A DNA stretch of 20,000 nucleotides from Cirrosporium novae-zelandiae (GCA_026023565.1 JAPETS010000072.1:50777-70776), one strand, 5' to 3'. Positions 4,259 to 19,957 are shown, numbered from the stretch's first letter. Notes: generated from the sequence alone by a model not told the origin. Program-made: numbers and translations.

Positions 4259-4485
4259 GCTTGGTACAAAGCTCGGAGGGATTTATAAAGAGGCTCTCTG
4301 TCTAGCTAGTAAAATACCAGGGAAACTGAGGTTCGGTCGACGGAGGGAGGGAGGGGTAAGGTATGGAAGCTCAAGGGAGCTTGAACGGAGGCTCGGTGGG
4401 AGATTGTCGTCGAGAGGCTCTCAAGTTAGCTATTAAAATAGTAGGAAAGTTGAGGTTCGGTCGATGGAGAAAAGGAGGAGTACAG
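4259..4485 (+). repeat. Degenerate tandem duplication, period about 124 bp, with weaker copies out to about 4700
   Basis: Seen: gaggctctctgtctagctagtaaaataccagggaaactgaggttcggtcgacggag from 4290 versus gaggctctcaagttagctattaaaatagtaggaaagttgaggttcggtcgatggag from 4414. Confidence 0.8.
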
Positions 4486-6554: not shown

Positions 6555-9500
6555 AATCCCAAGCCACCAATTCCATTCCCACTTCCATGTGCATCCTATC
6601 CATCTATCCAATCCGCTCTTCGAGGGGACTTTCCGTTTCTATGGGAATGGGGTTTCTTTCGAGTCGTTATCCGTGCTGCAGTAATAGGGTTTGGTTTTTT
6701 AGTGATGGGAAGAAGGAGCGGTAAGGGGTAAAGGAGGGGGGGATGAGAGGGTTTTATCTCCTTTCCTATTCTATGTGAGCCTCTATGAACCTGTGTGAAA
6801 GGTAGGTGAATGAATGAATGATTGATTGATTGACGGGATTACCCGGATACGTTAATGAGATGTGAGAGCTTCTCGTACGGGCTGACTGGCTAGCTAGCTA
6901 GCCACCTTACCTTCGTATTCGATTTGATATCAGGCTTCAAATTAGGAAGGAAATGGAAAAAAAGGAAAGAAAGTAATAGGAAAGGAGGGAAGCCATACAT
7001 GTACATACGGTAGGTAGCAGCACACATAATGGGTACATAGTAAATAGTAACACTAGCAGTAAGAGATATAACTATAGCTCCCATAGTTCCTTAAAAAACT
7101 ACAACTAGAACTAGAACTAGATAAAAATAATAATAAAACATAAATATTGAATTTGAGCGCCTCTACTTTGCTTTATTTTTGCTCTTTTTTACTACTACCT
7201 GTATAACCGTTACCCATTAACGGTTTAATTATAAAGGGTTCAGAGGATAAAAGAGATTGGTAGGTTAATTTCGGGGGTTTTTTTGAAAGAGGGGAGATGA
7301 GATAGGGTATATGGGATATGGGTTCGGTATGAAAGTGTAATAAGAAGGTGGAAGAAGGGGTGGAGTGAGTGAGCGAGCAAGTACCTTACTAGGTAAGGAA
7401 GTAAAATCAGTGGGTGAGTGAGTGCTTATGTCCCCCTTCTGAAAAATTCAAAAACCAAGCCCAAGTAGCAATAGCAACAATAAAAACCCTAACATTTCCA
7501 TTTCCATTTCTATTTCTTATTCCTTATCTTATGCCATGCCAATTATTACTTTAGTATGTATATATGAACACTGTATTTGGAAAACTTTAAAGAAAAAAAC
7601 CTTTTATTTTTGCTTTGGGAAAAGTTTGGTTAGCTTGACTAGGTTGATATTCTCTCTACTGCTCTGTAAGATAGATTCAGATCCTAGATATCAGGGATAT
7701 TTGGATTTATTTTTGGACTGGGTTGGAGGGGGAGATTGAAAAAAGTAAAAGGATTAGATAGATCTATAGAATTGAAGCTCGAAGCGCGCGAGTATACCCC
7801 CCCTCGCCTCAAAACAATAACGAGCGTCGTAGTCGCCCGTTTGACTTATTATAGACTCTCTCTCCTCTCTCTTGCCCCCAGCTAATCACACTCATCCTAT
7901 CCGGCGATATAATATAATAAATACCTCAATGCACGTAAGTTATTCTGGAAACGGAAACGTCTAGAAAACAACGGGTTGAGGTTGCTGAGGGGAAGTTGTT
8001 TGTTGTTGGAGAGTTGGAGAGTTGGAGAGGGGGGGTTTAAGGTTAAGGTTTGTGGTTTGTGGTTTGTGGTTTGGGGTTTGAGTTTGAGTTCTAAATTTGA
8101 GGTTGGTTGTGGGGTAGAGTATGGGTGAGGAGGAGAGAAGAGGAGAGAGATATTCGGGCTCAGGCTCAGGTGAGGAGATAGATATCTATTATGGTTTATG
8201 TTATCCCGATGCTATATCCAAATACCAGTTTGGTTTGGTTTGGTTCGATTTCCCAAGAAGCGCTAGTGGCTTGGTCACACTGGTTATTAGGGTTCTTCTA
8301 GAAAAGAAAATTGTTTGATTCTAGTGTGAAGGGTAGATAGGTGGATTCCTTGATTTTCTAAACTAGGTATAGGTATATGTGTAACTGGAAGCGGAGGTGG
8401 AGGTGGGAAAATTCTCGATATAGATATGGTGGGTGGTGTTGTTGGCTGCTTCGAATGACGATGCGGATGTAGATTGAGACTGGGATCGGGAAAAAGAGGA
8501 GAAGAAGAGGCGTGTAGTGGTCTGCTTTAGTTTAGGCCGCCGTTAGAAAGTTAGAAAAAAAAGGGGGCTGTGGGGTTGTTCATTCCCATCCATCCAACTA
8601 TCCATCTATTTATCCACCCATCCATGCTGGAACCAGGCACTTCTTCGATTCTTCGATTCTTCGATCGATTGATCGATTGTTCGATAGGTTAAGATCAGAT
8701 GAGATGGGATGGGATGGGGTGGCTCCGTCCGTTCGAATGTTCGTTGACGCGGGGAAGGTGCTTGCTAATTATCTAGTTGGAGGAAAGCTGATGGCTGATC
8801 TAGACCTGAACCAACCTAATAATCGGGTCGTGCTTGTTCTTGTTTTTTTGTGTCTTATACTTCTATACTTTCACAGCCAAGCCAAACCAGCGCCAAGCTA
8901 AGGCCAGGCAAAATAGTATGCAATTTGAGTTTTTTCTTTCTTTTGGGTTTTTTTTTCTCTTTGGTTACACGAGAAGGAAGGATAAATGGATATATCAGGC
9001 CGGTCTGGGACTAGGGAAATATGGAATATGCATGTGAGATTTGAATTTTTTTCTTTCTTTCTCTTTTTTGGGGTTTGAATGGCTGGCTGGGGTGTCCTAG
9101 CTGAGCCGGGTGTTGGGTGTTGGTGAGATTGGGGAATTAATGGAAAGGATAAGTGGATTAGATCATGGTTGTAATGGAGAAATGGGGGAGAGGGAAAAGG
9201 GCATGGATGTATATGTATACGCAAATGAATGAGAACGCGTGCACCCTCCCCCTCTCCTCTCCTTTGCAGACTTTTACAACCCTGGTCTGGTCACTCACCC
9301 ACGCCGCGGGTGCAAGTGTAACATACATCTATCGTCTAGGCTATGGCGTGTGGGGAATGGCTTGAGGGGGAAGGGAGGGGTGAATAGTTAGTGGAAACCT
9401 CCGAGAGCGAACTTGGAACTTGGATTTGGAACTTGGATGTATTTACGATTTAATGCCTGGGGATATGATAAGTGCAATTTCTTGGTTAATATTAATGGTC

Positions 9501-9686
9501 GAGATGACTGGCAACTCGTATGGTATGCTGCGGGTTCTGCATTAAGTATTTCCATCAGCGATGTTCGTCATAGCTTAGAAGTGACGTGTAGACAATAAAA
9601 TGAATCATCATTATCTCAACTAGCTTGTTACTGTAGCAGAAGGCTGTCGTAATACTGCATATAAGCTAAATCCATTCGTTCATAGA

Positions 9687-10738
9687 TCACACCAGCGCCG
9701 ATTCGCCTACAACAAGACCAGCTTCGTCATCATTGCTAGGAAGTCCAATGCACGAAAAATCCAAATCATTATTACCCGATTTCTTCCTCACGCCGGTATT
9801 GTTTGCTTTCGCCCTGGTTCCAATATGTACTAGTTTCACCTTTGCATATAATCCAATCATTGGGAGGCGAGTAGCGTATAAGCTAGCACACATTTGCATA
9901 ATCTATTATCGAGTTACTCTATCAATGTTCGTCCCAAGAACCCGGAATCCAACCTACCGAAAAAGACTGTACGAGTCCTCCTGCAATTTCATTTTTCCAA
10001 CCAAGTGCCAAGCACAGTGACGATGGGCAGGCAATCAAAAGGCATAGGGAGATACTGGCAAATAAAAAATGGAAATTATGACGCGTGGTAGTGGTGGCGG
10101 CAAGAGGTTCAGAAGGCCTGGAAACAAATTGCCAAAGAAGTAGGTAATATCCAATACATAAGAAAAAGTATGAGCTATAATAGGCGGTGATCATCGCGGT
10201 TAGAGCAGTATTTTTCGGAATGGCGGTAGCCGCACTGTTTATGACGTAAATTAGATGTCGTTTCAGCTGAGGGGGTGGTTGGATTTAGGGCTGTACCTGG
10301 AAATAATCCAGACTATTTCGAAAAATATCAAAAGACATAAAGGAACAAAAATCCATTGGCTGTAATAAGATTGGCCGAAACTTTCCCATAGCCGCTCAAG
10401 CTCATATGCTAAAAGTATGGGTACGTAAGAAAGCATCAACGAAAAATATAGACGCTGGATGATTGTATTGTCTATTCAATCAGAGCGTTACTATGTTACT
10501 ATAACTGTAGGGGGAGGGTTCTCTTACCATGGCTAACTTTGCCAAGCTGCATGATGTTGAGCACAAGCAGTGCAATAGAGAGAAGGAGGAGGAATATAGG
10601 CAACCCATATCGAATCATGCGGTGAGAGCGTGACAGTGTTTGACGAGGCGGCAATAACACGACACCTACTAGTAGAAGGATCGTGCATAGAAGAGTGACC
10701 ACAAAGGGTGCTAAACATGAAGGGTTCAAGGAAGGCAT
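9687..10738 (-). CDS. 292-aa predicted seven-transmembrane protein; exons 10738-10528, 10471-10297, 10234-9958, 9902-9687
   Basis: Seen: three GT-AG introns of 56, 62 and 55 nt with branch-like motifs (CTGAT, CTAAT, GTAAC) join three track ORFs and an unlisted exon in frame (879 nt). About seven hydrophobic stretches are followed by a polar C-terminal tail. Family not recognised. Confidence 0.85.
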
Positions 10739-11341
10739 AGCGTCCCAATTTTCTCAATCAATGGGTGGAGACGTGGTAGAAAAAATAGGTAGAAAGGGGT
10801 AGGTAATGGACAGAAACTGGGCAAAACAGTTGAGCTAAGCAAAAGGTTTCAGTGTCCAGAGCCTGTATATATAGAAAAGCCAAGGAAACAAGCAATCATT
10901 GAAATCGATGCAGCTTTCTACAAAACTAGGATCTCAACCAGGAAAACATGCATCCCGATACTATGGGCATTCGGTCCGAGTACAGTAATTACATACATAT
11001 TAGATGATTGAGTGCCAAAACGACAAGAGATTTCCGATGATCGAAGCCACATTTTCCATCATGGGATTCTGGCAGAAAAATTCGAGCAGATGATGCATAA
11101 GAAATAACGAATGCATAACAACAACATTATGAGGGATACTTGCTTTTAGTTTGAATTTCTGATAGGATAACGGAAGTGGGTCAAGATTCCGTCTATCTAA
11201 CCGAAAAAGGACATTCTCATCGTAGATACTCCACGAAAAGTCCATTTCTAGTTAGTGCTATATAAGTAGGCGGAGATGCCGCTACTCGCCCATTATCATC
11301 CCCAAAATTCATAAACCGACTCCTCAATTTATTCCTCAATA
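10739..11341. promoter_or_regulatory. 603-bp divergent promoter region
   Basis: Seen: TATATATA at 10866-10873 (about 130 nt before ATG 10738, -) and TATATAA at 11259-11265 (about 80 nt before ATG 11342, +). Confidence 0.6.
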
Positions 11342-13237
11342 ATGGCTTCCATTGACCTCCGTAAATTTTTACAGCGCGATGCACAGCAGTTCCTGTCAGA
11401 CGGTGCTATGGCAACGCAGTGGTTACTTCGTGTGCACAGCTTCCTTAAGCCTATCGTGGATCAATACCCAATCGACAAACAGAACACCGCTCCAAAGATT
11501 CTTTCACGTTTCATGGATTCTTTGACCAATTCTAGTCCTGGAAAATATACCAAGGCACGGAGAATTTTGGAAGAAACAAAATTCAATAACCTTGATGAAA
11601 GGTTGACATGCATCATCAGCAACCTGAAACTAGATCTACGTGCCTTTTTTATATCAGAATCAATGTTGGAACCTCCAGATCTTGGATCAACACCTGTTGG
11701 CGAGATTGGTTTGTTATACCTCCTCAAACGCCTGCATCAATTGGATACTATGGAAAATACTAGTGCTCTAATGATGTGTATCCGTAAAAGATTTTTTCTA
11801 GTCGGCTTTTATCTGCAAGCCAAGGATGCTCACTATGACAACAACCGAATTAAAAGAATTCACCAAGAGTATGGTAGTGATGCAGGCGATGAGGATCGTT
11901 TCCGAGAGCAATTTTGGCACCATTACACATTAGGCAGAATGTACTGTGAATGGGCAGAATTAGCAGGTGGAAACGGGTCACTGTTTCTTTTTCCAAACGT
12001 ATCTGAATCGAGGTGAGTTATTTGACTCGAAATTTCGGCCCTGTACTAATTTCCTTAGTTATCGATATATCATTAAAGAAGAGCGACAGCGGATAGTGGA
12101 GAATTTCCGTGAACATGGCTTATCGGAAGCTATTGATAAATATGAACTCAACAACCTGGCAGATCGGTTAGTAGATGTTTTGGGAAGTAAGAACACGCCC
12201 CATATACCAACTATCACATTCACCGAACCGAATATTTCGGTGAACAGATCAAAAAGGAGATATCAAAAGAATGCTATAAAAAAGAGAAATGATGGACCTA
12301 GCCGAAAGGCGGCCTTTGGTGTTCATCAGTCCACCCTTCAACATCAGCTTCTTCCTATGGACAATAATCTGCCCGAGCAACTAACGTCGGAAAATGAGTC
12401 TACGCTTCCACCGAACGTAATCGATAGGAATCCTGGATCTCACAGCGTTGAAGACGCTAATACATCTACTATCAGACCAGATATTCAACTACCTATAGTA
12501 GAACATGTGACTGAGGTACTACAAGATGAACAGGCCACGCGGATGCATTATCCGATGCGTCAGAATCTAGCTAGTTGCTCAGCAGAATTTGTGGAGAATG
12601 AATCTCAACGTAGTCTGGGGCCCACAGACGCAACACTCTCTGGTAGTCAGTTTACACAACATGATCTCGATGCCATACCACAAGACCTGGCTGCCTCGTT
12701 TTCGAAAGAACCGGTAAACCAAACGGAGATGCAACAAGCGTACGAAGACGCAATAATGACTGAGGACAGCCATGATAGTGTAAATACACACAATTATAAG
12801 ATGAGTTTGGATCAACCCAGTATGACTTCAGTGTCCAGACTTTTATAGCATAGCTAATAGCATTTTTAGTTGATAATATTGCTCACAACAATGCTGAATT
12901 GGGAGAACAAGAAACTGATAGACTTGAAACGAGTAAGTAACACCCTATCTTTAACTTAAACATCCCTAATCAATCGCGTCAAGGCATGGTAGATTCTTTA
13001 AACGTAACTAGCCAAGACATTGAGAGGATTAGCGTCCCTCATGGATATACGCCCTTCGAAGGCTTCACGATACCCTTAGAACGCCAAATAAATCATGAAC
13101 AGATTCAATCACACGTACTGACGACTGCCTTAACCCAGCCTCATAACCAGTCCATATATATGCCTGGTTCGCAGGCATATGACCCTAATAATCAGAACGA
13201 GGTTTCCCTTTTTATCGCAAACGCGCAAATATACTAA
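11342..13237 (+). CDS. About 582-aa hypothetical protein with a helical N-terminal domain and a disordered C-terminal half; exons 11342-12012, 12059-12819, 12870-12932, 12984-13237
   Basis: Seen: introns of 46, 50 and 51 nt (GTGAGT, GTATGA, GTAAGT donors; CTAAT branch points; AG acceptors) join three track ORFs in frame. Motif-like segments IRKRFFLV and GRMYCEWAELAGGNGSLFLFP; basic patch RSKRRYQKNAIKKR as a possible NLS. The 3' end is uncertain. Confidence 0.85.
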
Positions 13238-13375
13238 CTATCCTTGCTACCCCTACGAACTTCCCGAATCCGTCTCTCTCTGGCAAGTATGCAACTCCTC
13301 CACATTTCTTCCGGCGAATTCATGTGATGCGACATCAACCCCCACAAGTATAGGACGAAGCCATATCTCCGTCAT

Positions 13376-13902
13376 TTAGCTATCATATACCTGAGCTATA
13401 AAGAGGCAATCCAGTCCTGGGCTTATTTTGACCGGTTTAGTCATATGTGTTATCCAACCAGGTATTAACAATTTGTGAGGGCTGATTGTTCCTGTCGCAA
13501 TTTGAGGGTCGAATACTCCCCATATATCTGGACTTCCACTCCATATTCTTATCGGAATAATGCAGGCGAAACCTGGGGTGTTTTTAAACGCCGATGGGAA
13601 GGGACCTGGGATTCGCAGTACTGTCCATCCGAAACGAAATGCGCCGAACTATTGTTTTAATTAGCTAGAGTTGATGGAATCCTGTTTCTTTTTCGCCATA
13701 CCCTCCTGACTAGCTCTAGCGCAGACCGAAGCGATTCGGAAGCTTTATTCAAGCCTTCGTCCCTGCAGACTTCAACATCACCACTTGACTCGAACCTTGC
13801 ATCTTTAACCCAAGCTCCAAATTCATCTAGCAAATTTGGGATAATAGGGTTAGTCAGCTTTTCTTGTAGAAGATGAGTGTTGTCATGCCCAATTGTAGCC
13901 AT
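13376..13902 (-). CDS. 157-aa hypothetical protein, beta-rich C-terminal half (possible cupin-like double-stranded beta-helix); exons 13902-13702 and 13648-13376
   Basis: Seen: 53-nt phase-0 intron 13701-13649 (GTATGG...GCTAAT...TAG) leads into a 91-codon open exon FGAFRFGWTVLRIPGPFPSAFKNTPGFACIIPIRIWSGSPDIWGVFDPQIATGTISPHKLLIPGWITHMTKPVKISPGLDCLFIAQVYDS. The fold is inference only. Confidence 0.8.
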
Positions 13903-16705
13903 AACTTCGTCGTCTAACGTACGGCTTTTTTAAATCCGTGGTGGTTGGTCAGCAAAGGATTTAGCAAGAAGTGATTATACGCGATACCCGTACATGTTAA
14001 CTTAAATTTTGCTGAACGATAATCTTTGATACGCAAAGCTCACCAAGGAGCGGGGTATGTTCCTTAGAGGTTACGCAGCTATTGGCGGGGGCGGGGTGGT
14101 GGGGCACCGAACCAAACTCGAAAGTTCTTTGTCATGTGACGAGTTGTGGTATAACGATATTCCGAGTTCCGTACAATAATATTCCGGTTAAATCTTTGCA
14201 AAGTTACGGGTTGAGATCTCCTACTCTTCATTTATCCAAGTCCACCATCATTTTATAGTTTATTCAATAAGCCTCAAACCAGGAATTTCCAGCAGCAGTA
14301 ATAATATAAGGGGTTCTCAAACGAAAAGCATAAAAGACGTTTTGTGATTCCCAAAGTAAACAAATCAACCGCACCCCCCTCAGTACTATTTCAAATCGGT
14401 TGCTATACCTACTACTACACACATGACCAAACCAAACCAAACCAAAACCATTCAATAATGTTCAAACCTAATTGTGCACAAAAGCACAATTACAAGCAGG
14501 ATCCAGGAAGAAGAAGAAAAAGTAAACTTAATTATATAAAGGTGAGATGAATTGTGGCGTTATTGTTGTTGTTGTTGTTCCTATGCGTACATGTAACATG
14601 TATAGTAATTACGAACTTTTTTAGTCCTGCCCTTTCGATTTGAATCTGGTTCTGGAAATGATGGGAAACTAGAGCATTGCCGCCGAATATATTTTTTCTT
14701 GTGTCTACTACACACTGTATAGTATCTATGTGGGCTATACATCTTAATTTCAACAAACCTCGAAGATAATTAAGCTAAGCATAGATACCACTCAAAAAGA
14801 CCTCTTATTACAAGCCCCGGCTTCGAAGGTGGTGAAAGGCTCTCTCCTCTTCCTCTCTCTCTTTCTCTCTCCCACCCAACCAACCCAACAAGCCTAACCA
14901 AAAATCCCAAAATCCCGAAATCCTTTTTTCCACAGTCCCATTCCTTTGGTTTAGTTTCCTTCCAACTTCAAAAAACAAAAACACACATCCCAAATCCATA
15001 AGTCATGAGTCATTATTAATATTACAGTAGGTAATTAATTAGAGACTATGCAAAGTAAAGTTCATGCAATGCTATGCCATGCAATGCTATGCCCTCCGCT
15101 AATAATGAGAAAGAAAATTTCTTAGTTTGTTATATTTCACTGTATGTATGTTCTAATGTTGGGGATATAAGCAAGTAAAAGTAAGCTAAGCTCAATAGAC
15201 AGATAGATAGATTGTAAGTAAAACTTGGGGAAAAGCCCGTTCATTCATGTGTGTATGTGCTCTGCAAGTTTGGAATAACAGGCCCTAGGTAGGAACGAAA
15301 GAAAAAAAAATAATCATCCCCCCAAACCCTAAACCACAATATTCTCCCAACTCCCAAACCTTGAAGAACAGGCTTTGTTTGCTTTATTTATTAAGTGAGT
15401 CAGAAGTCAGAAGTCCCCCTTGTCTCACTCGATCCAGTTTTCGATTCAGATCCGGATTTCACAATCTAACCATGTAACCATGTCCTATGTACAACATGAA
15501 AGGGACTAGGGATTAGGGAGATTCTGAAGAATGGGGACATGACGTGGATTTTTTTGGGGGACAAGGGTTAAGGGTTAAGGGGGATAGGCCTTTAATCTAT
15601 TCATTTTCTCTCATTGTTGTTTTCTAGTCTATTACGTAGGTATGCATAATGGATATATTCTCGAAGCACTGTAAGCATCCAACCCAATGCACACATACCA
15701 TACCACCCTAGATCCAAGTGACATATTATGCATGCCCGTTCTTTTCTCTCAGCCTGGCTGGCTTGGCTAACAGGCTGGCTGCTTGTGTTGTATCATTCGC
15801 AATAGTGCAGTGCAGTGCATCGCTGTGGCTGATTCCCCAGAAAGCCCTTCCTTCCATTGGCAGCAAGTCTAGGTGTTCTGTAGTGCATCTAATTTTTAGC
15901 CTCGTTTCAGGGGGAGGGGGCTGGGGGGGGGCTTGGGGGTTATGTCCCGATGCTGTTGGGGGTTCGTGACCCTTTTCATGCTTCTAGACGGTCCGAATCT
16001 CGCCGTTTACAGTGGACCCTTTTCGTGGCAGCGAGGACATCAAATGGAAGAAACGTCGAGTGGTCTAGGAGCGAGGAATCTCGTACGATCCATCGATTTT
16101 TTAGAGAGCAATGACGATATAAGGGGACCTCCCGATCAAACTTTCCTCCTAAATTCAGATAACGGGGTGGCTTATAGTTCCCACATCCAACTATTTTTTA
16201 ACTATGGACAGTCTTATAAACAACCGAGCCAGCCGATGTTTGTGAGATTTCACTTGCTGATTCTTCAGGTAATCCTTTATCTATGGAAGATTTGGTCTCC
16301 CGAGGACAGCATCCATTTCCCTGTATACGATTGTTTTCAACCCATGGACGTGTATATCAATCCGTCATTTTCTTAAACGTAAGATTCGTCATGGAAGGGT
16401 TAATTCCAAAAATATATCACAATCGCACCGGTTATTTAGTTCTTATCAAGTTATGCTCTAGATATGGTTAAAAGATAGAAAGGTTTTTAGCCTAATCTTA
16501 CGATAGTTAATAAATATGTCAATGGAGAGAAGCAATATTGCTACTCATTTAAATACAATGGAATGTACAGGAGGCATGGAAGCGGATGTTTAGATACTTT
16601 TGAGTGTTAAGTTTTAATTGGTGATTTTCTCCCTTTCACATCGAAGATTTGAAGGCAGTTACTCTCAACAGTTGGACCCGGATGGAAACCTTCCTTACAA
16701 TATAA

Positions 16706-17205
16706 TCATTCTTGTGTGGTTTCCAGCACCTTGAGTTGTTTAGATCGTTCCTCATAATACATTACTATAAGCGTGCATTCACTCTTATTGACTTTGTCCT
16801 TTTTTTCCTTTTCGGAAATAAAGAAGTCACAAGGTCCACTGACGATGGCGATACGCCCTGGTTTCCAATCGATCATCTCTTTCTCTTTGTTAGGAAGTCT
16901 CGGCATGACACGGGTATTAACACGAGGGCATAAAACGGCTAAAGATCTGGATGTAAACATGTTCCACTCCTTGCATATTGATGGGTATCAGGGAGAAAGT
17001 CTTTGAGGCGCTATTCTAATTGTTAGTGTTTGCCAGTTATTTGTAAATTTGCAACGTGAGTTTTACAGTTGGAAGATGGGTATTCACTAAATTCCGTACC
17101 AGTTCTAGGAATTCTCACCGAGTAGTACAACAGGTTGGGGCAGTTTGAATCACGTGCCAGAGATAGAATTTCTTTCGTTTTAAGAAACGGATATATATCT
17201 AACAA
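16706..17205 (-). pseudogene. Stop-interrupted distant paralog of the 157-aa gene; 5' end unresolved and may include ORF 17343-17588
   Basis: Seen: branch and acceptor ACTAAC...AATAG (17027-17011); candidate phase-1 donors at 17066 or 17087; in-frame TGA at 16990-16988. The terminal exon shares A-x3-P-x7-P, PG-x-I-x5-P and [DE]C-x-[LF]I-x3-Y[DE] with the 157-aa protein. Confidence 0.55.
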
Positions 17206-17931
17206 TAAATTCTAACTGCCAGCTTCTCTTGATTAATATTAACATTAACATTAACGAAATTATTTTACTTTAGACTTAGTATTTATTTAATATTAGCTGT
17301 TAATCAACCGAGTTTTCTGCTAAAAAGGCTTATCGTTCGATTTCATGCAAGAAATCGGTCCTTCCTTTTCCCCGCCATCAAATACTCCTCGACTTCAGTG
17401 GAAGCGCTTAACCTTCCATCACCATGGCGTCTTACGATCCAAAAAAGTCCCGCCGTATCGCCGTTATCGATATTCCCGAACCCTTTCATGATGAATACTC
17501 GGCCCTTGTCTAGAACGCCGCTAGAACGGCTCAAGACTGTATATGAGAAGAGCCAGTTAATATACTCCACGTGACACATAATTTTCATACCTCTCAGGAA
17601 ACCATTATTTAACGGTGATCCAAATCCAACATATCCTACTTGGCCCTGTGCTTAGTGTTCTATGACTTACGTCATATCTAGTTAGGATACTTTATTGAAA
17701 CCATATTCTATTGCAGTACAAGAACACCAGAGGCTAATTGATCTAAATACTATTCCGCCAGATGATATATATGCTTATGCACGCTATGTTCTGGGCCTCT
17801 TCAATAAATCTCGTCTGGCCCTCGTGTAAGCGACTCCTTCGTGATATAGCATGTATGACAGCGCTCGTATCCACATTCACTACAATTTTCCCCAGGCCCT
17901 GTTATCTGGCCACATGAGCAGCAGTGAACTC

Positions 17932-18426
17932 TTATGCGTTCTCATACGCAATGATATTCATCAACTTGACGACACTATATTCATATCAGCGGAGCTTATG
18001 GCTAAAAAGAAGAAAGAATTACTAAATCTTTCCTTCTCGGTACTCCTTGCCGTTCGGCTCTTTCTGCAGTACCAGGACTTTCTGTCCTACAGTCATTGTT
18101 GGTATGACCAAAAAGACTGCATCAGGGAGAGTTTCATGTTCTTGTTGTCCGTATGAACCGTTGTGGGCAACAAAAATGGTCTCGAGCTCCTTTTCTTCGA
18201 GCGTAGATGGTAGACTAGAGCTAATGTTAGCATTATTTGAGTGATTAGTCTTAGGATTATCATACAAAACATCAGCATCCTCGCCGAAGGCTTGTGAAAT
18301 GAAGGCTGTCTCGACAGCGCCAATCTTGAGCTCGACAGTATCGTCCTTTTCCGGCCTTCGACCGCCATTACCCTTCTCTAATTCGTATACGCACTCTCCA
18401 AGGGGGATTATGTTAGACAGCTTCAT
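17932..18426 (-). CDS. 131-aa divergent FKBP-like protein, probably catalytically inactive; exons 18426-18266, 18214-18023, 17974-17932
   Basis: Seen: 51-nt in-frame intron 18265-18215 (GTATGA...GCTAAC...TAG) and 48-nt intron 18022-17975 (GTAATT...CTGAT...TAG). GNGGRRPEKDDTVEL, PTMTVGQKVLV and KIYVVKLMNI match, in order, FKBP12-type GDGxxxPxxGxxVxV, xMSVGQRAKL and LVFDVELLKL. Confidence 0.75.
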
Positions 18427-18509: not shown

Positions 18510-19957
18510 GGCTCAAGTTTCTGCCAACTCTCAAAGAAATCCAAGGGACTACTAGATAGGCGCTAGAATAAACAACGACCAATTGTCTGTAAGCTACAAC
18601 GCTACAGATGGTGTCCAACGCGATAGTTATCAATATGTTCACCCAACGAGCCACGGGGTGCTGGGAATGAGGAGATCTGGAGAGCCTAGTGCCTGAAAGG
18701 ATCCCAAAGTTCAGCAGAATCGGAATATACTACTCTTGGATCCACTATAGAACATTTGGGCTTGTGCCAATGGAAGGATTTCTAGGAAATCAGCCACAGC
18801 AATGACGACCGCCCCCAACGACACAACATGCAGCCAGGCCAGCCTTAAAATAAAGATGACAACCATGACGAATTATAGCCAGGAAATAGATATGACATGG
18901 ATATGCCGCTTGGATTCAGGATAGCATGCATTGGATGCTGCGGTGCCTCGAGAATCCATTGTGCTCAATGGGCTAGACAGCAGCAACGGGAAGAAGTGAA
19001 CAGATGAAACAATCGTCAATGTAGAAAGCCGGTCTTCATAAAGGTTGGATGGAAAAACAGTTACACGGCATCTTACCCTCTTCTGCTCCCATCTCTCCCT
19101 TGATTTCAACAGGGAAGAGTAAAAAGCAGCTGCATGGGGTCAGGCGCTTTCGACCATTATCTTGGATCTCCCTTGTTCTGTAAGAACGAAATCTCCAATG
19201 GTTTTATGTGGTGTATATGGTAGATTCCAAGGAGCCGTAATTCGGGGCCAAAAAGTGGAGTCAAGAGGACCCCACCAAACTGATTCTTCAAGATTGAGAG
19301 ATAAGCTTCCCAAAACTTAGGCATCGAGCCTGCTTAAAAACCTGCTTATTTCTAGAATTTTCTGCATTAGACAAACCTTACGCGTTGTTGTATAAGTCGA
19401 GGGTTTTTATACAGGGGATTGGAAGCAGTATTGCCATACTTGTAACATGAATGACTCCTAAAAATGCGGATATTTCCGAGTTGGAGCAAACCAAACCAAC
19501 TAATTGAATCGAATCGGGCCCTATAAAAGAATTTGATAATTTCCGTTATCCCCTTCTTTGGATTGGGGGAGTCTCTTCCACCATTCTTCGAAACCCCCTG
19601 TAATAAAAAGTCTTTTTGAATCCTTATCCCAACTAGCTTCGAGATTTTTTCTTCTTTCTTTATAGCCAAGGGTTTGTATAATAAATAACACCTTCAAGGC
19701 AGAGAGAAATAAATACTCTAAGCCTCTGACGAAATAGGTCACACAAGATACTATATCAAATGCAACAGTACTTTGTAACTAGTAACTTCCTTCTCTTCTC
19801 CTTGGTAAGAACCTCTCCAGTCATCTTCTAGCATTAGCAAGCCTATCTAAGCACATCATCTTATCGAAGCTTGGAAATTGAAAAAGTATGGAATTTTTGC
19901 CACGTTATTGAGGGCTAATATAGCATTAAAGCTGGAGATGCGAGGCACAAGAAGGGG

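Follow-up and report, generated by a model that had tools for sequence, protein, structure and literature searches.

Giant transposons of the Starship type are characterised, in passages of PMC11162782 and PMC13486527, by a DUF3435 captain accompanied by auxiliary DUF3723, FRE, PLP and NLR genes, and a passage of the former (section 22) describes a cargo that is largely unannotated (median 49.9% without COG annotation) and subject to fast turnover. Here we describe a block of three genes, A, B and C, and its relatives in the genome of Cirrosporium novae-zelandiae, a fungus whose genus is described in the abstract of PMC6712537 as an isolated lineage of the Pezizomycotina. The block lies in a stretch of 20,000 nucleotides (the window; G000:C99:50777-70776), which forms the final 20 kb of a 70.8 kb contig in an assembly of 31.4 Mb and 128 contigs, and our comparisons rest on paralogs inside this same genome (C99, C48, C71, C72, C120, C101, C35 and similar labels denote contigs).

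We find that the block is a real cassette that is under selection and recurs in the genome; as mobile cargo it is of a known kind, but its slot-swapping layout is undescribed, and its function we infer. A literature search returned no description of such a cassette, although subscription papers were outside its scope, as were the supplementary tables of Starship cargo, which may contain these families; nor do the passages of the Starship papers cited above describe a cassette in which three slots keep a fixed order while their partners are swapped. The reading that we favour, tentatively and with somewhat less than even confidence, is that of a Starship-derived, slot-shuffling regulatory cassette. 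Its part on origin, namely that the cassette family is Starship cargo which stays behind in the host genome when elements decay, appears quite probable, while a regulatory mechanism, if this origin is granted, is evenly balanced.

Genomic context and coding status of the block

The copy of the cassette on C48 sits in a Starship-like region. It lies at 195.5-199.8 kb, with a DUF3435 captain (C48:170034-171413, + strand) 24 kb upstream that points into the cargo, a patatin gene (E 2e-6) and a DUF3723 gene (181.0-182.6 kb, E 1e-78) between captain and cassette, and a ferric reductase gene beyond the cassette (216.7-218.1 kb; E 5e-5, which is below the cut-off, with FAD_binding_8 at E 8e-10). Together these genes amount to the captain and three of the four auxiliary families named in passages of PMC11162782. 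The surroundings of this copy and the unannotated nature of its cargo are typical of Starships, whereas A, B and C themselves fall outside the four auxiliary families. Of residence in a Starship, a check proposed in the initial annotation of the window, the C48 copy thus shows a Starship-like setting, and the window copy, which has no captain or DUF3723 gene on its contig, does not; only 6.1 kb of the contig remain beyond gene C, leaving room for a captain past its end, and in our reading the window copy is cargo that has been stranded. The C48 region (G000:C48:170000-218100; L047, L048, L024, L005, L025, L049) also holds a Myb-domain gene and Est1-like pieces, and its right end is undefined. 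Two further Starship-like regions, with a captain, DUF3723 and ferric reductase-type genes, are found at C13:558700-601000 and C90:21800-53000, and a stop-riddled captain accompanies a DUF3723 gene on C45.

A, B and C are real protein-coding genes, given their splice models, the purifying selection acting on them and the A introns found at matching places in the C48 copy. All seven introns in the spliced models are GT..AG and 46-62 nt long. Ratios of nonsynonymous to synonymous divergence (dN/dS) against the closest paralogs are 0.39 for A (bootstrap upper limit 0.54), 0.30 for residues 1-272 of B (0.41) and 0.32 for C (0.50); the comparisons involve the C48 copy of A (67% identity, same three intron positions), the N-terminal part of the C48 copy of B (56% identity) and, for C, a paralog that is 69% identical and located on another contig. 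The initial annotation had described three intact multi-exon genes with a 603-bp divergent promoter region and convergent stops at most 138 bp apart, all of which agrees with the spliced models (603 bp and 138 bp exactly), and had rightly noted a block without microsatellites, unlike its flanks (simple repeats occupy 117 bp of 8001-9000 and 92 bp of 14001-15000, but 0 bp of 10001-14000). A single contig of one run (X1) covers positions 8000-15962 with 0 differences, which joins the block to its left flank and makes a misassembly of the block unlikely, with the reservation that X1 is possibly the source of the assembly and not independent of it.

Recurrence of the layout and exchange of partners

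The order of an A gene, a divergent long gene and a convergent small beta-rich gene is found at five loci (C99, C48, C71, C72 and C120, the last with its A truncated by the contig start), and a convergent small gene is carried by five of the six A loci with enough upstream DNA, C101 being the exception; the C124 and C11 contigs end within A. Stop-to-stop gaps vary between 11 and 318 bp across copies, and the C99 and C48 copies are intact. B and C are a tighter pair than either is with A, as C35 keeps B and C without A. Matched pairs also recur, with slot-2 type B1 next to C-slot subfamily C1 at C99 and C35, and B2 next to C2 at C71 and C120. Further C-type genes occur at C43 and C74; the one on C74, which matches the C2 profile at E 0.0012, faces a C2H2-like open reading frame (ORF; Pfam E 0.018, below the cut-off) in convergent orientation. 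As a separate observation, a fourth small beta-rich gene is convergent to A at C71, C124, C11 and C101 (L019:5864-6238, L020:4757-5131, L021:649-1086 and L022:4130-4666); neither C99 nor C48 showed it.

Gene comparisons nevertheless indicate that the three genes are not passed on together as one unit, given discordant divergence, close A copies beside partners that cannot be aligned, and partial or broken copies. Between C99 and C48, synonymous divergence (dS) amounts to 0.47 in A but reaches 1.14 in B, and the slot-3 gene of C48 does not align with window C, whose closest relative is the paralog on another contig mentioned above. Exon 1 of A is 68-91% identical among C71, C72, C101 and C120, yet the divergent partners of these genes are of three types that align neither with each other nor with B; over the A copies compared, likeness reaches 68-96% beside such non-alignable neighbours. 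The A-proximal part of the spacer is common among copies, and reaches 91% identity over 141 bp between C48 and C72 although their A genes are only ~36% alike, which suggests exchange between copies within the A-side spacer. Consequently, of the co-inherited accessory module put forward in the initial annotation, the accessory character stands (a layout at five loci, one of them Starship-like), and co-inheritance appears to apply to the layout but not to the genes.

The three proteins and the explanations for the cassette

Gene C is predicted to encode a catalytically dead protein of the 2-oxoglutarate (2OG)-Fe(II) dioxygenase-like, double-stranded beta-helix type. This fold is read from its 69%-identical paralog on C127 (P0005) and from the slot-3 protein of C48 (P0006), window C not having been folded whole. 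The P0005 model (predicted local distance difference test score, pLDDT, 63; predicted template modelling score 0.63) finds its best structural matches among 2OG-Fe(II) oxygenases (Z 10.3, root-mean-square deviation 3.5, 143 residues aligned), and its top 50 VIA matches are all of this type; independently, P0006 matches PhyH/2OG clusters at TM 0.68-0.70. The HxD...H iron triad is absent in window C, P0005 and P0006: the HxD site reads N-T-P in window C and H-E-N in P0005, no histidine stands at the start of strand VII in either (in a register taken from DSSP strand reading, not superposition), and P0006 contains no histidine whatsoever. The likeness to 2OG-Fe(II) dioxygenases (PHD2/P4H, PhyH, AlkB) lies in a beta-helix that spans nearly the entire P0005 and P0006 chains; by contrast, identity to these enzymes is ~10%, the triad is lost, the chains are shorter (127-197 aa in the models made) and there is no Pfam match. 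The statement in the initial annotation that none of the three proteins has a nameable family thus no longer applies to C, which is nameable by fold.

Gene A belongs to an orphan family of membrane proteins with at least eight copies in the genome. Its hydropathy profile has the seven peaks that led to its earlier description as an orphan seven-transmembrane (7-TM) protein, four of them above 2 and one at 1.4; the other two reach just 1.0-1.2, such that a 7-TM topology is likely but not proven. Single A exons returned no family in Pfam searches. A resembles PTH11-like/Fung_rhodopsin (PF20684) receptors in its roughly seven hydrophobic segments, the last of which bears a CASL motif, but we reject membership of that family: no A locus is among 102 genome matches to PF20684 at E<=10, a PF20684 profile of 10 genome pieces gives scores of -0.3 to -7.2 bits for four A proteins after splicing, and profile-profile comparison gives a probability of 0.2, which leaves room for a remote kinship of fold. 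Among the PF20684 matches, some are identical between C35 and C47, where their coordinates nearly coincide, and some have equal scores on C32 and C94, suggesting duplicated contigs.

Gene B (NCBI KAI9726557.1 / M1834_008999, the sequences being equal on reading) may encode a transcription-factor-like nuclear protein. It is predicted to be all-helical over residues 1-266, followed by a basic patch (281-300) and an acidic, polar, disordered tail with 29 D+E and 8 K+R in the last 200 residues, a combination that is not specific to transcription factors. The last 200 residues are net acidic and polar in all six slot-2 proteins examined. Residues 1-275 gave no feature match in Atlas, and structure rows of TM <=0.34 by query. 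The tails of several slot-2 proteins (P0002, P0007, P0008 and L095:6470-7327) end in short tandem repeats of aromatic and acidic residues, a composition resembling that frequent in activation domains.

Searches outside this genome returned no homolog from another organism. A exon 3 yielded 0 of 53 candidates, and since neither A itself nor its 71% paralog was returned, A is probably absent from the collection searched. B exon 1, compared with 1.84 billion representatives, gave four matches, three from this organism and one tandem-repeat protein dropped as chance. The C profile confirmed two of 2265 and the B2 profile two of 8000 scored, in each case from this organism; none of 336 and 212 pattern matches in metagenome contigs was confirmed, and PHROGs held nothing below E 0.04. 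These blanks are weak, as the searches are insensitive for fast-evolving families, and lineage restriction is not thereby established.

According to our favoured reading, three-slot cassettes would be carried by giant transposons of the Starship type and remain in the host genome upon element decay. Slot 1 would hold an A-family membrane protein, slot 2 a protein of ~530-590 aa whose N-terminal part is ordered and whose long acidic tail is disordered, and slot 3 a small degenerate dioxygenase-fold protein. Copies would swap their slots, most likely through recombination within the A-side spacer that they share. C might act as a non-catalytic binding partner of B, or as a metabolite or peptide sensor tuning it, and A as a membrane sensor or output co-regulated with B from a bidirectional promoter, roles that are conjectural, as are the receptor, nuclear effector and ligand-binding or modifying protein of the initial annotation. 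What we take to be an analogy for a dioxygenase fold regulating a transcription factor is provided by oxygen sensing through Ofd1-Nro1-Sre1N in S. pombe and through PHD-HIF. However, Ofd1 and PHD enzymes keep their metal site and are neither clustered nor mobile, and no homology of B to the transcription factors of these systems was found. The fullest version of the claim, that of an undescribed, operon-like signalling or recognition system borne by Starships, in which an orphan 7-TM protein, helical nuclear regulators and a pseudo-dioxygenase partner swap slots via a shared promoter and have been domesticated in host DNA, seems to us unlikely.

A number of observations weigh against a Starship-derived regulatory cassette. 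No captain (0 of 17 DUF3435 matches) or DUF3723 match (0 of 10) lies on C99, C71, C72, C120, C101 or C35, with the qualification that most copies are at contig ends and that PLP, FRE and NLR were not searched genome-wide, and no element boundaries were found around the window block, the repeats there being short and at chance level. The layout itself is imperfect: the A gene of C101 faces another divergent gene, followed by genes for tetratricopeptide-repeat (TPR)-like and Mur-ligase-domain proteins, C occurs alone at C127 and a weak B alone at C66, and three of the four other copies with the complete layout carry lesions (a stop in A common to C71 and C120, a frameshift in the C-slot gene of C71 and an apparent one in that of C72), as does C35, with an in-frame stop in B. 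No significant homology links the slot-2 subfamilies B1, B2 and B3 (probability 0.1-0.2 in hhalign; z <=1.3). A likeness of motifs among the three that had been noted by eye failed a held-out test, in which the best held-out B1 ranked 13-14 of 591 ORFs with three training rows on top, and B2 and B3 fell outside the top 14. Homology among C-slot subfamilies was likewise not significant in held-out tests (best 5 of 300 shuffles), the C2 and C3 assignments rest on position and pattern alone and are partly circular, and profile hidden Markov model matches to C120 were discarded as a link between C1 and C2, as the profiles already contained C71. Lastly, the structure model of B is poor (pLDDT 35; best structural match Z 6.4, within background), and B has no match to a DNA-binding family in Pfam.

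A potential alternative explanation is that the gene order arose long ago by chance among Starship cargo and was multiplied by duplication, with each gene selected alone and no joint function. Discordant dS values and partner swaps agree with this, as do the single- and two-gene loci at C127, C66, C35 and C101 and the mostly unannotated, fast-turning cargo described in the passage of PMC11162782 (section 22). We nonetheless find mere hitchhiking rather doubtful, given that slot order survives though the occupants of the B and C slots have diverged beyond alignment, that the gaps between stops remain tight, and that the window copy is intact and selected though embedded in host-type, repeat-rich DNA. 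Alternatively, the cassette may be a conflict module, with B (or A) as toxin or non-self trigger, the convergent C as matched antidote, and the diverged copies as specificities. Conflict genes such as Spok, wtf and het are multi-copy, diverged, often pseudogenised and linked to mobile DNA, and the many diverged paralogous cassettes with frequent pseudogenes described here are consistent with such a role, together with the matched B1-C1 and B2-C2 pairs and the occurrence of C without a nearby B at C127. Yet no domain in common with Spok, wtf or het was found, A, B and C match no toxin, NLR or HET family, B1 is paired with a non-alignable C at C48, and selection is purifying, not diversifying, on whole-gene averages, such that we assign this explanation a low probability.

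Less probable still is a role in element maintenance, in which B would bind element DNA, C would read modified nucleic acid or chromatin against silencing, by way of a fold related to AlkB and TET, and A would be a passenger. Parallels to such a role can be seen in Epe1, a dead JmjC protein, and in the TET/JBP genes that KDZ transposons carry; the fold neighbours of C include ALKBH5/6/7, FTO, AlkB and NgTET1 (Z 7.8-9.5), and no signature resembling repeat-induced point mutation is seen in the block (TpA/ApT 0.62-0.89). However, prolyl hydroxylases and small-molecule oxygenases score equally, within 1 Z, no captain accompanies the window copy on its contig, and scans of the two other Starship-like regions (22-52 kb of C90 and 562-602 kb of C13) did not reveal the cassette.

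With its fixed order, selected genes and exchangeable partners, the cassette provides a defined three-gene unit among Starship cargo for which mostly no function has so far been found, and it illustrates how the host genome may retain stranded cargo once an element has decayed. If a regulatory or recognition system is indeed encoded, fungal biology would gain a new helical family along with a dead dioxygenase partner; otherwise the cassette is still a useful marker for Starship relics.

Neighbouring features and further observations

To the right of the block lie the remains of a second cassette and an ORF (Table 1).

Table 1 Positions and attributes of the features in the window, counted from its first nucleotide
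Feature	Position	Strand	Attributes
Gene A	9687..10738	-	4 exons (10738-10528, 10471-10297, 10234-9958, 9902-9687); 292 aa
Divergent spacer	10739..11341	.	603 bp, ATG-to-ATG, between A and B
Gene B	11342..13237	+	4 exons (11342-12012, 12059-12819, 12870-12932, 12984-13237); 582 aa
Gene C	13376..13902	-	2 exons (13902-13702, 13648-13376); 157 aa
Tail relic of C72-type B-slot gene	16086..16287	+	73% DNA identity to L095:6900-6702; protein z 12.2
3' relic of C72-type C-slot gene and convergent junction	16366..17103	-	68% DNA identity to L095:6477-5720
5' piece of same C72-type C-slot gene	17357..17550	+	inverted relative to the rest; two in-frame stops; 74% to L095:5467-5658
ORF F ('FKBP-like')	18022..18426	-	single 134-aa ORF

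The initial annotation had seen a paralog of the third gene and an FKBP-like gene in this flank, and neither identification survives. The supposed paralog belongs to a relic of the C72 type (16086-17550, 68-74% DNA identity) that is broken and in part inverted, and has no significant similarity to C, and ORF F has no Pfam match at E<=1 and no PDB match at E<=10. A homolog of ORF F (41-43%) is present in the Starship-like region of C13, flanked by a DUF3723 gene at 559-560 kb and a captain in decay at 600 kb. An inverted pair of 75-bp sequences (15818-15892 and 18736-18804, 79% identity) flanks this second, rearranged block.

A second recurring block, comprising an orphan gene, a TPR-like gene and a Mur-ligase-domain (folylpolyglutamate synthase-like) gene, is found at C101 and C13 (L022:6992-9999 with L026, and L096:1103-4983). 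In the left flank of the window, the non-coding DNA contains a 70-bp direct duplication (4289-4358 and 4413-4482, 79% identity), and a 90-bp A/T-patterned element at 639-730, which is possibly a cis-element of cargo DNA, matches two places on C120 at 75-77%. At the left edge itself lies a protein kinase fragment (L009:9258-9998, extending into positions 1-220; Pkinase E 7e-10), and similar lone kinases are located near the C72 and C120 copies.

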